Shown: positions 7,018-55,752 of the stretch, one piece after another | Position numbering within the stretch: position 1 is the stretch's first letter | Layout of the letters: each line of letters opens with the position of its first letter | Assembly: GCA_964016885.1 (NCBI GenBank) | Contig: OZ024758.1 | Coordinates: 27,652,001-27,716,000 of the forward strand | DNA from: Eledone cirrhosa | Lineage: Eukaryota | Length of the DNA: 64,000 nt | Direction of reading: 5' to 3' | Made by a program: the position numbers and the translations under genes | Notes under the pieces: generated by a model | Told to the model about the DNA's origin: nothing | The model's input: the letters and a program-made list of their open reading frames with translations, nothing else | Databases searched by the model: none

Positions 7018-7512
<495 letters not shown>

Positions 7513-8245: not shown

Positions 8246-8869
8246 CTATATTAAATTTGTTATATATATATATTTTATATATTGCAATATTGAAGTTATT
8301 CAATGAGACTGGTGCCTTTTTGGGGTCAAACAACATATCGATTATGTCACATGTATAGTTGACATTACACACCAAATCCCCAGCTGCTCTAAAATGTCAT
8401 CAAGGCTTAACCTTCTGGTATTCTTGTTAAAACAATATAGCATCATATGTGTAGGAAGGACTACTCTGGGACAAATGCACAAATATTTCTCCTGTTGAAT
8501 ACATCATGTTTCATCAGAAGAAAGACTGGTTTATCATTCTAATCAAAACTATTGCCAAATGGAAACACAGCAGGCCTGATATAGTTAATTAAGACAAAAC
8601 AACAAGAATTGTGTACTTTTACAGGGGCACATTTCATTCATAATTACTTAAAAAGCCATCATCCTAGTCTGGCATTTGAAGGAATTTAAAAAAAAATATC
8701 TAACCATATTAAGCTGGTGTTTAGTACATAGCTTACAGATATTTTTCCATAAAATTCTTTTTGATTTAAATAGGAATACTTTGACATCAGAGGAATAGTT
8801 TTGTCATCACAGAATTGGGGCAGTTTGGGTTAAGTTTTTATCAGTTGTAGTGATTTACTGGTCCTAATC

Positions 8870-23277: not shown

Positions 23278-23850
23278 GGAGGCACATGGCTTAGTGGTTA
23301 GAGCATTGGCCTTGCAATCGAAAGGTTGTGAGTTCAATTCTCAGACCGGGTGATGTGTTGTTTCCTTGAGCAAGACACTTTATTTCACATTGCTCCAGTT
23401 TACTCAGCTGTAGAAATGAGATGATAGGGACTAGGGTCCATATCATTCCACTGCAAAGTGGTTGTGCAGATGCCACAGCAAAAAAGCACCCAGCACTCAC
23501 TGTAAATGAGGTTGGTGTTAGGAAGGGCATCCACCTGTAGAAATCAAGCCAGAATCAGTTCCCATCCCACCCTTGCAAGCAGGGAAAAGCGGACGTAAAA
23601 TGAAATGATGATGATGATGAAATGATATATATGCCCCCTGTAAAGTGGACGTGTAGGTGCCACGGAAAAAAAACACCCAGCACTCACTGTAAATGAGGTT
23701 GGTGTTAGGAAGGGCATCCAGCTGTAGAAATCAAGCCAAAATCAGTTCCCATATGAGCAAGACAAGGTCAGCCGACCGGACACTGCCCACAACAGGACAA
23801 CCCATCTAACCCATGCTAGCGTGGAAGAATGGACATAAAACGGTGATGAT
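23278..23850 (+). mobile_element. SINE family B plus a second partial copy
   Basis: tRNA-like head follows (TA)n; (tga)n tails. Confidence 0.85.
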
Positions 23851-26172: not shown

Positions 26173-26520
26173 GAGGCACATGGCTTAGTGGTTAGAGCAT
26201 TGGCCTTGCAATCGAAAGGATGTGAGTTCAATTCTCAGACCGGGTGATGTGTTGTTTCCTTGAGCAAGGCACTTTATTTCACATTACTCCGATTTACTCA
26301 GCTGTAGAAATGAGATGATAGGGACTGGGGTCCATATTATTCCACTGCAAAGTGGTCGTGCAGGTGCCACGGTAAAAAATCACCCAGCACTCACTGTAAA
26401 TGAGGTTGGTGTTAGGAAGGGCATCCAGCTGTAGAAATCATGCCAGAATCAGATCCCGTCCCACCCTTGCAAGCAGGGAAAAAGCAGACGTAAAAATGAA
26501 ATGAAAAATGAAATGAAATA
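26173..26520 (+). mobile_element. SINE family B
   Basis: Near-identical to other copies. Confidence 0.87.
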
Positions 26521-27004: not shown

Positions 27005-27315
27005 GAAGCACATGGCTTAGTGGTTAGAGCATTGGCCTTGCAATCGAAAGGTTGTGAGTTCAATTCTCAGACCGGGTGATGTGTTGTTTCCTTGAGCAAG
27101 AAACTTTATTTCACATTGTTCCAGTTTACTCAGCTGTAGAAATGAGATGATAGGGACTGGGGTCCCTATCATTCCACTGTAAAGTGGTCGTGGAGGTGCC
27201 ACAGCAAAAAAGCACGCAGTACTCACTGTAAATGAGATTGGTGTTAGGAAGGGCATCCAGCTGTAGAAATCAAGCCAGAATCAGTTCCCGTCCCACCCTT
27301 GCAAGCAGAGAAAAG
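27005..27315 (+). mobile_element. SINE family B
   Basis: Near-identical to other copies. Confidence 0.87.
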
Positions 27316-27819
27316 CATACATATCTTTACTTTCTTTATTCAATAGAAAATCTGAAATGTGACACCCCAGCGAACTAACCATATTCACTGAACCAGAACA
27401 ATTCTCCCATCCCTTTCTCTTGACCATTATCTTTCACTTATCAAAAAATTCTCTAAAAAGGCTACAGAATGGATTTCCAAATAAGGGCACAAAAATTTAA
27501 TGAAAACTTGTTCACGTCGCAGCCATAATTTCATTTATAACCAACCAAAAAAAAGCCTTCGTGAGCCTCCTTTTTTCAAGTAAAAAGAAATTCAAACACT
27601 CATATATGAAAAAACAACTGCGACAACCCCCCCCCCCCCCTCTTATTTGAAGAACTATTGTAACGCGAACTGACGCGAAATTTATTATAATTATTGACAA
27701 ACCAATCAAATTACTTCTCGAAAAACCTGGCATTTCGAGCCACTTTTTCCATATAAAACAAGTAACATTCAGAGACCAACCAGATGTGAGAAAAACCACA
27801 GACCCTCCATCTCAACTCA

Positions 27820-27857
27820 CCTTTTGAAAAGCAGAAGAACTGCGAAACCGGTAAAGG
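27820..27857 (+). ncRNA. Minimal type I hammerhead ribozyme, U3-A8 core variant
   Basis: cctt-TTGAAAA-gcag-aagaa-ctgc-GAAA-ccgg-TA-aagg: stems I and II pair perfectly, palindromic ACCGGT helix III, GUA site. Confidence 0.72.
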
Positions 27858-27922
27858 AACAAAATAAATATATTTTTTTTTTAAATAAGACTCCAGTTGC
27901 ATTTTTGATTTCATCTCTTTTT

Positions 27923-27965
<43 letters not shown>

Positions 27966-39679: not shown

Positions 39680-40819
<1,140 letters not shown>

Positions 40820-40950
40820 GTGAGGTTTTTTTTACAAAATGAAAAATAACCGAGGTGTCCTACACGAGTGAAAGTATAAAGAAAAAGAGATGCAATCGGA
40901 AATGCAACTGGAGTCTTATTTTTCTTTTAAATATATATATTTATTTGGTT

Positions 40951-40988
40951 CCTTTACCGGTTTCGCAGTTCTTCTGCTTTTCAAAAGG
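40951..40988 (-). ncRNA. Minimal hammerhead, U3-A8 variant (left arm of fold-back)
   Basis: Exact reverse complement of 27820-27857. Confidence 0.7.
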
Positions 40989-41029
40989 TGAGTTGAGATG
41001 GAGGGTCTGTGGTTTTTCTCCTCAACTCA

Positions 41030-41067
41030 CCTTTTGAAAAGCAGAAGAACTGCGAAACCGGTAAAGG
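41030..41067 (+). ncRNA. Minimal hammerhead, U3-A8 variant (right arm of fold-back)
   Basis: Identical to 27820-27857. Confidence 0.7.
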
Positions 41068-41132
41068 AACCAAATAAATATATATATATTTTTTTTTAAA
41101 TAAGACTCCAGTTGCATTTTAGATTTCATCTC

Positions 41133-41173
<41 letters not shown>

Positions 41174-44471: not shown

Positions 44472-46161
44472 TCTTTATTAGCCACAGGGGCACAAAAGAA
44501 GGGGACAAATACAAAGGGGGAAGTTTACATACAATAAAAACGTGTAAAATATTATCACAAATGCAATTAAAAAGATTAGTCGATTTTCCCCAATAGGGGG
44601 AGACAGTTCATATGGGTAACACATACCCCCGAAAAAATGTGCAGCCCTCATCTCCAGGAGTACGAAGAGTTTGTACTCATTTCCTCCTCTCCTCCTTTTC
44701 CTCAACCTACAGGCTGATATAGAGAGAAGGCCCATTCACTCGGGCCATTCTCGCCACTTTCACCCACCTTTCATAAAACTTGCTGGGGTACAGCATTCAC
44801 GAAAGGTTGTAACTGTAGAAACAAAGCAAATTGCCCATTAAAAGGAAATTGCCTTATTAGTAACATAGTATATAAATGTAAAGTTAACACTAAGGACTCA
44901 ACTTATTCATATATAGGAGCTACTTCTAACCAATTTAAAGTAAGATTTAATACCCACAAACACAGTTTTAAAAACGCCGCATTAGCTAATACAACATCTT
45001 CAGCTGAAATAATTAATAATTATAGAAAGAGGAATGTAGATTATAACCTGACCTGGAGTGTGCTCAAAAGGGCCACCCCTTATCAAAATAATAGATATGA
45101 ATGTAGATTATGTTCCCAGGAACTTTTTGAAATAATGAAATCTAAGGATATCCTATTAAATAAACGACAGGAATTAATTATATGATGTAATCATAAACTG
45201 AGAAGAACTTTTAAATATTATAAACCTAATTAATATACACTTTAGAAATTATTATAATAACACTTTTTTTAAAATTAGTTAACCTATAATTAATATTCTA
45301 CTACTAATGAACTGCATAATTTTATTTCCCTTTTACAGCTATCTTTTCCTAAAATTTATACCAATAAGTATACATATAAACTATTTTAATTTCAGGTTAT
45401 GATTCTATGTTCCTTATAATCTATATAAATTTGTTATTTATCACTAATAAATTTACCCCCATAATTATTATTATTATCCCTTCGTTTTTAACAGCACTCT
45501 TCAATTACATCTAACTCTTATTTATCACATCTATATGAATTAATATAAATTTATCCCTATAAATATACCTATCAATTTAATTTATTTATTTTCTTTTTAT
45601 AGATGTAAATTCCCTATATTTTGAATAAGATTGATATTTTTCACTAACACATTTATCGTAAAATTTTATTCTCCTCAGATATTTACATTAGCATTATTCT
45701 TTTATAACATCAATTCTTCTTGTACCTTTTACCAACTTGACCTATTTTCATCCCTAAAATAATCTTTTCATTCATCATACTCTTTCCATTCAAAACTGAA
45801 ATCTGCCTTCCTCTACCCCTAAATTAAAATTCTATTACTACTATTCTACCATCTTGACCACTCACTAACTTTTCTATTGGTCAATTCAAAACCTGTTCCC
45901 AAACAGGCCTATTATATTAAATCTTTGTTGGTTTTTTTCAATAAACAAATATCATTATTTCTGAAGACAGCATATATATGTGTAGGTATGTATATTCCCT
46001 CTGATAGTTTGTAAAAATTTTACATAGATCTATATGATATACATACCAACACAAACATATATATCCTAGAAACGATCGTAAAATGATGAATTTTTTAATA
46101 TAAGGAACTGTTTCTTTGTTTTTATTCATTATTTTTATTAATTTATATATATATATATATA

Positions 46162-47093: not shown

Positions 47094-47214
47094 TTGAATT
47101 AGTATGGTATAGACAAGTACATATGTTGTTTAGGTGTATAATATTGTCAATACTCTGATATGCCCAGTTCCTTGTTGGGTTGTTATTTCACTGAGGATAC
47201 TTCTTGTTTTAATT

Positions 47215-47252
47215 GCCCTGATGAGTCCTTAATAGGACGAAACATTGTTGGC
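47215..47252 (+). ncRNA. Minimal type I hammerhead ribozyme
   Basis: gcc-CTGATGA-gtcct-taat-aggac-GAAA-cattg-TT-ggc, followed by AATAAA. Confidence 0.8.
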
Positions 47253-47342
47253 TAATAAAGACTTTTGATGTATTGAAGGCTTCTTTGTTTTACTTTCATA
47301 AATATATATATATATATATAGACATATATATATATATCTATA

Positions 47343-48883: not shown

Positions 48884-49004
48884 TTGAATTAGTATGGTAT
48901 AGACAAGTACATATGTTGTTTAGGTGTATAATATTGTCAATACTCTGATATGCCCAGTTCCTTGTTGGGTTGTTATTTCACTGAGGATACTTCTTGTTTT
49001 AATT

Positions 49005-49042
49005 GCCCTGATGAGTCCTTAATAGGACGAAACATTGTTGGC
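49005..49042 (+). ncRNA. Minimal hammerhead, second copy
   Basis: Identical to 47215-47252. Confidence 0.78.
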
Positions 49043-49134
49043 TAATAAAGACTTTTGATGTATTGAAGGCTTCTTTGTTTTACTTTCATAAATATATATA
49101 TATATATATATAGACATATATATATATATCTATA

Positions 49135-52744: not shown

Positions 52745-52931
52745 GCGATGAATTAGTTTTGCGAGGTTTTTTATATGAAATCGTGTGTCGAAACAAATAT
52801 TGTTATACTTGGGGAGGGTCATATTGTTGTAATATTGCCAGAATTAATAACAGAACACACTCTGACATAACAATAACTCTGAGTATAGAAATAACAGCCA
52901 TAATAGTAATAACAATAATAATAGCAGGAGA

Positions 52932-55752
52932 GTGAGAAATAGTGATAATGGTAATAATACTAACGATAGACACAACCACAACAACCACAATAATAATAAT
53001 AATAATAGAAACATTAACTACAGACACAGCAGCAGCGACCACAGTAGTAATAACGGTAACAATACGAACAACAACAACAACAACCACAGTGGTAATAATG
53101 GAAATAATACATGTAGCAACATCAATGATAGACACAACAAAAACAAGAAACATAATAAAAGTAACAACCACAATGGTAGAAATAACAGTAACAACAACAA
53201 TAACGGTGAAGTAAACAACAATCACAGCAACAATACATCTAGCAATCATAACAATAATAATAATGCTAATGATAGGAACAACAACAACCACCATAATAAC
53301 AATAATAGCAACACACACAACTATGACGATAGATATAATGACAACCCCTTAGAGAAACTATTTTTCAACCCAGCTGACAAAACATATAAGATGGGTAATA
53401 TCTATCCTACGAGGTTACCCTTTAATAAAAGAGTTTGCATACCACAACAAATAGATGACGAGACAGAAGCACAGTTCACCATAGCTAGAAATAAGATTAG
53501 ACAAATAGTAGACCGGTATACTAAGAGACAGAGCAGACCAGAGGCCCAACAACTTGGGAGGAAACCTGTAGAAGGCTTGGTTAGGCTCAAGCAGCGCACA
53601 AGGGATGGTGAGGTAGTATGTCTACCCACGGATAAGTCGGGTAGGATGTCAATAGATAGCATGCCGAACTACATCAAGGCTATGCAACCCCACATCACCA
53701 ACACGAGCGAAATTGCACAGCAAACACATGATGGGAGAGAGAAAATCCTCAACGCTCACATTATGATGTGGACTGACATCCTAAAGCCAAGCAGATGCAC
53801 TGCCAACAACTTCCAGGCATCTAACAATGGCATACCACCCTTGTATGGGCTCCGCAAAGACCACAAGACAGTCGACGACCTGACAACAGGACCACCAACA
53901 AGACCCGTATGCGGAGCTAATATAGCTAGCAACTACAGGATCTCCTACTTCCTCTCAATGGTTATACGCCCCATAATCAAGATGTCCCCAGATGTATGTG
54001 ACAGTACAGAGGACCTCCTCAGCAGAATCAGAGAGTGCAACAAAAACAGGAACCTATCCAACTGCATAATAGGCAGCATGGATGTGGTATCACTGTACCC
54101 ATCCATTAACATTGATTTTGCTGTGAAAAGATGTGTGGAGATGATCATTGAGAGTGAGGTGGAGTTCTGCGACGTCGACGCAGACGAACTGGGCCTCCTA
54201 CTTAGACTTACCTACGACACTGACTACCTAGACAGCCATGACCTTAGACGTTTCTGCCCTAGTAGACCCATAAGAGGTAGACCCCCCCACCATAACCCCC
54301 ATGCCAAAAAAGACTCCCATGGGAAGGTGGATTGGGTGGACCAAAGCTATACAGACCCCCCAAAACAAAGATCAGGTAAGAAAGATGGTCGCACATGCAA
54401 TAGGGGCTAGTATCAAAACTACCCTAAAGGGCCACATATTCAAGTTCAACGAGAAGATCTACACCCAAAATGAGGGAGCAGCCATTGGCGTCAGCATAGC
54501 TGGTGATGTTGCCAACCTTTTTATGGTATGGTGGGAAAGGAGACTTAAAGATCTCCTTAATGAGAGCTCCATAGACCTCATCATGTACTCTCGTTACGTA
54601 GACGATATCAATATAGTTATAAGAACATCCCCACTAGAGAGCTCTAACAAGTTTGATTTAGAACGTAGCACAATGGAAAGCATCCAACAGATAGCTAATT
54701 CCATACACCAGAGTATAACTGTAACTATCGACTACCCTTCCAAACACCCTAACAATAGACTACCTGTATTAGACACGGAACTCTGGATTAACACTATAGA
54801 CAAGAGAGCCCAAATTCTTCACTCACACTATGCTAAACCCATGGCCTCCAAATACCTAATACTCAAAAACTCAGCAATGTCCAGTAGTGCTAAGTTTAAT
54901 ATTCTGATCGCAGATTTGGTACGAGTGATGAAGAATGTGTCCCGCATGTGCGACCCAACAGAAATGGAAAGACACATCCAACACTTCATCAACCGCATGC
55001 AGTTCTCTGGCTACAACCAAAGAGACAGAGTCAGAGTATACGAAGGAGCCATGGAGAAGTATAAGACCCTCATAGAACTGGACATGAAAGGAATTTGCCC
55101 ATTATACAGGAGCAAATCATGGAATAGATTAGATAGGGCTAGACATAAGATAGGGAAAGCCACCTCATGGTACGACAACCAGAGATACCAGAGAGTCATG
55201 TTTGTGGATGCTACCCCTGGAGGGAAATTAGCTAACCAGTGTAGAAAGGCCCTGAGAAAGACCCACTTAAAGATTAAGGTGGTAGAAAAGCCAGGAACCA
55301 CCATAAAATCCCTGATCAGCAAAACCTACCCTTTTAAGAAAACCCACTGTACTAATAGGAAATGTATCATATGTAAGGTGAACCCCCGGATAAACTGTAA
55401 AACTAGAAATGTAGTCTATAGCATAAGATGTACAGAGGGTACTTGCAGAAACATGACAACAACATACATAGGCGAAACAGCTCGTAGCATAGGTGAAAGG
55501 ATAGACCAATACTGGGGGGAACTAAAAGGACGAAAAAACGGGTCAGTACTATACGAACATGCCAGACAACAACATAACGGTAACATAGAGAACATAGAAA
55601 TTAAAATAATATCTAAACATAGAAATGACCCAGCAAATAGGCAAATCAGAGAGGCCAGTGAAATAGAACTTAGAAGGCCAAGGCTAAACAGAAAGAATGA
55701 ATGGAATAACAACAACACCCAAACAAACAACACTGACCTAAGAGAAGTATAA
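52932..55752 (+). pseudogene. PLE RT/GIY-YIG polyprotein split by a single extra C at 54282-54288
   Basis: PTDKSG, LYGLRKDHK, RPVC, SMDVVSLYPSI, QNEGAAIG, RYVDD, LPVLD, CxxxxCxxC linker, VVY..YIGETAR; deleting one C joins the two ORFs (RPPTITPMPKK). Confidence 0.9.

Follow-up and report, generated by a model that had tools for sequence, protein, structure and literature searches.

Three identical copies of a 38-nt minimal type I hammerhead motif lie in a 64,000-nt stretch of the Eledone cirrhosa genome (GCA_964016885.1, contig OZ024758.1, positions 27,652,001 to 27,716,000 of the forward strand; hereafter the window). The motif belongs to the end repeats (pLTRs) of a young Penelope-like element (PLE) family of about 12,000 copies, in which the core carries U3-A8 in place of C3-G8. 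Its anatomy is that of a hammerhead, its core pair is fixed in the family, it stands in both end repeats of full-length elements and it covaries among relatives. With a probability of about 0.8, we read it as a hammerhead that likely cleaves itself slowly, at a predicted site after GUA, either as a pair of copies joined by the palindrome ACCGGU or with assistance from the element protein.

Structure of the hammerhead motif

The copies are located at 27820-27857 (+), 40951-40988 (-) and 41030-41067 (+). The initial annotation had described three identical motifs there, and sequence comparison found all three 38-mers to be the same. In the first copy, read on the forward strand, the 5' strand of helix I (27820-27823) forms 4 bp with its 3' strand (27854-27857) and is followed by the core UUGAAAA (27824-27830; U3-U4-G5-A6-A7-A8-A9, with U3 at 27824 and A8 at 27829). 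Helix II (27831-27843) has 4 bp, is opened by G10.1-C11.1 and carries a 5-nt loop; the GAA (27844-27846) leads into the helix III palindrome ACCGGU (27847-27852), which makes 6 bp in a dimer only. The predicted cleavage triplet GUA occupies 27851-27853, with the cut predicted after A17 at 27853. The core, stems I and II, palindrome and GUA site that had been proposed are thus all present, with the caveat that helix I is only 4 bp long.

The motif matches the type I hammerhead layout N3-U4-G5-A6-N7-N8-A9 with a Watson-Crick 3-8 pair, G12-A13-A14, A15.1-U16.1 and H17; the canonical letters C3 and G8 are absent and the Watson-Crick 3-8 pair is kept. With a descriptor open to every Watson-Crick combination at 3-8, these three motifs and no others were found in the window; on randomized sequence it gave no match in 3,000 dinucleotide shuffles of the 3' region (1,180 nt) of the element and 2 matches in 40 shuffled windows. 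Rfam, whose model is weighted to the canonical core, listed no hammerhead at the three sites among the best 150 of 154 matches at E<=1; it did list canonical hammerheads at 47212 and 49002, below the gathering score. The three copies in the window represent a single motif shared by descent and not separate events, because the exact 38-mer occurs 6,009 times in the genome and its reversed control not once.

Parent element

A GIY-YIG frame was found upstream of several motif copies, and a sense motif was found upstream of the 5' coding region in 10 of 30 loci that contain this region. Eight of these ten loci were fetched as the full-length set. Six of the eight hold two same-strand motifs, 4,672-4,693 nt apart, flanking ORF1 and an ORF for reverse transcriptase (RT) and GIY-YIG endonuclease, so that the motif lies on the sense strand in both pLTRs; it is the only descriptor hit within the element. 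The ORFs are uninterrupted in four of the eight loci, with 409 codons in ORF1 and 771-775 codons in the RT-endonuclease frame. Pfam matched the latter with RVT_1 (4.9e-6, below cut-off) and GIY-YIG (3.7e-6). The RT followed by a C-terminal GIY-YIG in a single ORF, relatives with the same Pfam domains, 5' truncation, partial tandems and an inverted truncated copy identify an endonuclease-bearing (EN+) PLE, which confirms the earlier guess of a PLE parent. The two pLTRs of the full-length locus L189 are 98.8% identical over 1,198 nt, and the family is young, since its full-length copies are 98.5-99.8% identical to each other. A non-LTR retrozyme, which would consist of short tandem repeats that lack coding capacity and carry a single hammerhead per unit, is excluded as the parent because the family has coding full-length copies.

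The element protein contains DKG, a CX4CX2C linker before the endonuclease and a CxxC inside it, the linker and CxxC motifs standing at residues 645 and 689. This agrees with the linker (CX2-5CxxC before the endonuclease, CxxC within it) of Neptune, and by the definition given in PMC8557442 the element fits a Neptune-type PLE, an assignment made from these motifs.

ORF1 (409 codons) overlaps the RT-endonuclease frame in the -1 frame (L189:1731-5194, and likewise in L186-L193). At the junction stands the heptamer U UUU UUA followed by a weak hairpin, and all 24 of the distinct junction contexts contain this heptamer. We take it to be of a known slippery type; a programmed -1 frameshift is likely at this site. 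The legend of Fig. 1 in PMC8557442 refers to a frameshifted ORF1 in PLEs.

Genome-wide state of the core

A pattern search of the 3.0-Gb genome, with helices II and III held exact, returned 11,820 copies of the motif. U3-A8 is present in 11,672 of them, while 101 have another base at position 3 and 47 another base at position 8; all 23 copies with G8 have U3, which leaves no CUGANGA copy among the 11,820. The claim that the UUGAAAA variant is fixed in the element family holds on these counts. They also rule out a family consensus of CUGANGA: the window copies are not decayed canonical motifs, because U3-A8 is the family state. Among the copies outside the 6,009 exact ones, many carry a helix I variant, in which an altered 5' strand shortens the helix; it was seen in 9 of 30 copies sampled and makes up about half the depth in run X1. 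Contigs of four runs aligned to the 3' repeat showed known subfamily differences, with none listed inside 8350-8380.

The genome holds at least 12,375 U3-A8 hits and 9,712 C3-G8 hits, counted with similar though not identical patterns. A search restricted to C3-G8 would thus overlook the majority of these minimal hammerheads. These totals represent few events, because two large families make them up. A canonical-core outgroup within the genome was sought as well; the pattern gave no more hits than its control (142 against 153), which makes this count uninformative, and the family protein was present in none of 30 loci.

Folding and predicted cleavage

The monomer is predicted to be unstable (-0.4 kcal/mol), and a half-dimer through ACCGGU is predicted to be stable (-14.7 kcal/mol), as expected of a short palindromic helix III that requires a dimer. 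Read-through RNA of a full element would hold two same-strand motifs 4.7 kb apart, which would pair through the palindrome and slowly trim the element RNA, and the element's own protein may assist cleavage after GUA. Known PLE systems give this scheme a background. Minimal hammerheads of PLEs, as dimers, show weak cleavage (PMC4209133; reviewed in PMC6765202), and the hammerhead of a Poseidon PLE needs the assistance of its protein, loses activity with single changes at position 3 or 8 and is partly rescued by the double swap (PMC11167929).

The lowest-energy half-dimer brings in a complication, since A17 of the GUA triplet is also able to pair with U3 in the predicted fold (-15.4 against -14.7 kcal/mol). 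Such a U3-A17 pair would be the analogue of the inhibitory C3-G17 trap and counts against cleavage. The C3-G17 trap slows hammerheads 8- to 100-fold (PMC3884650). This brings up the strongest alternative, namely that the fold is kept with catalysis almost silent, U3-A17 closing the site, and that the motif serves as a binding or pairing signal for an element protein or RNA. The predicted pair speaks for it, as do A17 in all 30 sampled family copies and the weakness of helix I, which is absent from the predicted fold of the helix I subfamily L009. The Poseidon PLE dispenses with cleavage in vitro, where its reverse transcription is independent of it (PMC11167929), and functions other than cleavage are left possible in the 2014 paper (PMC4209133). 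RNA reads in the Poseidon study did not end at the cleavage position, which also counts against cleavage (PMC11167929). Three points make this alternative unlikely. A U-A pair is weaker than C-G. Distant relatives preserve both the catalytic letters of the core and the pairing of position 3 with 8, which argues for selection on the active fold. Traps with G17, for their part, slow cleavage and do not abolish it (PMC3884650).

G17 itself occurs in two related U3-A8 sister copies, L115 (-) near 1005 and L121 (-) near 1052, with helix I in register. On a speculative view, which has the odds against it, the 3-8 swap would re-key the rule for position 17: with U3, A17 would trap and G17 would be freed, the family would have a built-in brake (U3-A17 closed, U3-A8 open) released only by a dimer or by its own protein, and the G17 sister copies would be a natural NUH exception. 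Because it is young and homogeneous and has intact ORFs, the family is well suited to a test of whether the 3-8 swap alters the base permitted at position 17.

Covariation among relatives

The amplification of one source counts as one event, and selection on the fold was hence sought in relatives. Within the genome, the U3-A8 pattern with the family helix II excluded gave 703 hits against 19 in the control, a set made up of mutated family copies and sister families. From 50 fetched loci and four others, 32 distinct non-family motifs were obtained. In these, pairs 2, 3 and 4 of helix II persist in 30, 30 and 29 motifs and pairs 1 and 2 of helix I in 28 each, mostly by different base pairs, with helix I pairs 3-5 weaker (20, 25 and 19). 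All four bases are seen at position 7, helix III is palindromic in 21 of the 32, and A17 is not avoided, being present in 15. Three sister loci adjoin proteins about 50-57% identical to the family protein; in one of them (L194, 57%) the 3' region is unalignable and the motif stands 1,071 nt past the stop, compared with 1,045 in the family. By sequence, the sister families retain U3-A8 while their helices vary by paired swaps.

The external set consisted of 96 related loci from other organisms, searched with a scanner that excluded G17. A sense-strand motif was found in 33 of them, 30 distinct, with 23 C-G, 4 U-A, 1 A-U, 1 G-C and 1 U-G pairs at 3-8. A Watson-Crick pair is thus present in 29 of the 30, with all four combinations represented, and the lone U-G lies inside a coding region. 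Double swaps account for six of the seven motifs other than C-G and a single change for one, which matches the prediction of a required 3-8 pair. The A3-U8 and G3-C8 cores, each a single example, have well-formed helices and lie beside related RTs (L248:1969 and L256:117). When the closer loci were rechecked with a relaxed pattern, no convincing motif was seen in 14 of 16, the exceptions being L277 and L201.

A quick tree from stitched alignments, with no named reference elements, included 29 external loci, each with a single distinct sense motif after removal of L279 and duplicates, and three families of this genome, one of which (L196) was labelled from an adjoining inverted repeat. The families of this genome group together in a single clade (96), and the strongly supported branches force at least 4 switches of the 3-8 pair; clustering of the 3-8 label on this tree was not clearly better than in shuffles (26/200).

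The comparison bears on a second alternative, in which a canonical founder hammerhead took two chance-complementary hits and was then passively amplified as a dead relic. C3U and G8A are both transitions, the copy number reflects amplification of one source and not selection on each copy, and among 40 copies of the family, variability in the motif was not visibly lower than in the flanking sequence. This history is nevertheless very improbable, given sisters with different helices and proteins only 50-57% identical that keep U3-A8, the prevalence of double swaps among relatives, and mismatched cores that number only 139 (C3-A8) and 98 (U3-G8) genome-wide, mostly scattered apart from one small C3-A8 group that recurs. 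U3-A8 is real and fixed in the family, and it is very probably compensatory, as the initial annotation had proposed for C3U plus G8A.

Window copies as truncated fragments

All three window motifs lie in 5'-truncated pLTR fragments that hold no ORF. The first fragment (27340-27929, +) is an ORF-less 3' end of the PLE that ends in (TA)n and is 89% identical to L189 over 597 nt and 94% over 269 nt. The other two form a head-to-head insertion in (TA)n: an inverted fragment of 214 nt with a longer 3' end (40807-41020, -; 96% to L189) and a direct fragment of 124 nt (41021-41144, +). This pair is unable to form a dimer in cis, because its motifs are on opposite strands, and a transcript from either strand of 40807-41144 is predicted to fold into one long hairpin of 250 nt (-160 kcal/mol). 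Takeover of a window copy by the host, as a ribozyme or, if the inverted pair were transcribed, as a source of hairpin RNA, is hardly credible, as the window copies do not stand out from the other truncated members of this large and young family, and insertions commonly take the form of head-to-head inverted pairs in (TA)n (PMC8557442; PMC3846280), of which the family has many. The three truncated copies are probably inert by-products of insertion.

Relation to known systems

The novelty implied by the initial annotation does not stand, for the U3-A8 variant was published in 2011 and, for PLEs, in 2014. Perreault et al. (2011, PMC3088659) describe covariation of C3-G8 to U3-A8 in several natural examples, call it compensatory and cite Przybilski and Hammann (2007) for activity in vitro; Cervera and de la Pena (2014, PMC4209133) report U3-A8 in the Cercyon PLEs of Schistosoma mansoni, with about 1,300 hits that their first descriptor overlooked. 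The present family is a new example of this published variant and setting. Within limited coverage of the literature on either, no paper on this particular family was found, and no passage about U3-A8 was found in a 2026 preprint on retrozymes and PLEs; closer U3-A8 examples may be contained in Figs S2-S5 of PMC4209133 or S6 of PMC3088659.

The motifs of Cercyon share with ours U3-A8 for C3-G8, the pLTR location, a helix I of 4-5 bp and a palindromic helix III, and there too most copies are truncated, opposite-strand pairs lie near each other and a canonical descriptor misses them. They differ in that helix II here has 4 bp and lacks the additional base at 9/10.1, the helix III palindrome measures 6 nt, and the copies, in another host and family, are homogeneous, with 6,009 of them identical, and outnumber the Cercyon hits about ninefold (PMC4209133). 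The natural variants of Perreault et al. show the same 3-8 covariation; as presented in the available text they are not tied to retroelements, whereas here U3-A8 is the state of a whole element lineage (PMC3088659). With Neptune-type EN+ PLEs (Craig et al. 2021, PMC8557442) the element has in common the C-terminal GIY-YIG, DKG, the CX2-5CxxC linker, pLTRs, partial tandems, an inverted truncated copy, (TA)n targets and an optional frameshifted ORF1, a likeness at the level of motifs and layout, and Nematis has the linker too. The PAc hammerhead of the Anolis Poseidon element also lies in a pLTR and depends on 3-8 pairing; its core is canonical C3-G8, and its protein-assisted activity was assayed (PMC11167929).

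Other features of the window and genome

The window also contains an identical pair of canonical hammerheads at 47212-47256 and 49002-49046 (+) (Rfam Hammerhead_1, 29.1 bits), which are separated by 1,790 nt and belong to a duplicated unit surrounded by microsatellites. Elsewhere in the genome, a separate tandem family with a 466-469 bp repeat carries a canonical CUGAUGA hammerhead (L055-L074, e.g. G000:C1:5738327-5752334); it supplies most of the 100 matches listed among the 9,712 C3-G8 hits and resembles a non-LTR retrozyme. At 52866-55752 (+) the window contains another, different Penelope-like RT-endonuclease, whose reading is spread over two frames; at 44718-45185 (-) lies part of a GIY-YIG domain with a CxCX5C motif, which the definition of PMC8557442 would class as Hydra-like. 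Canonical-core hits with a short GC-rich helix II adjoin GIY-YIG frames of the CxCX5C type at L144-L146 and L154-L155. Four tRNA-like matches of 28-30 bits (Rfam) at window positions 7287-7344, 23287-23344, 26181-26238 and 27013-27070 are probably the heads of a tRNA-derived SINE.
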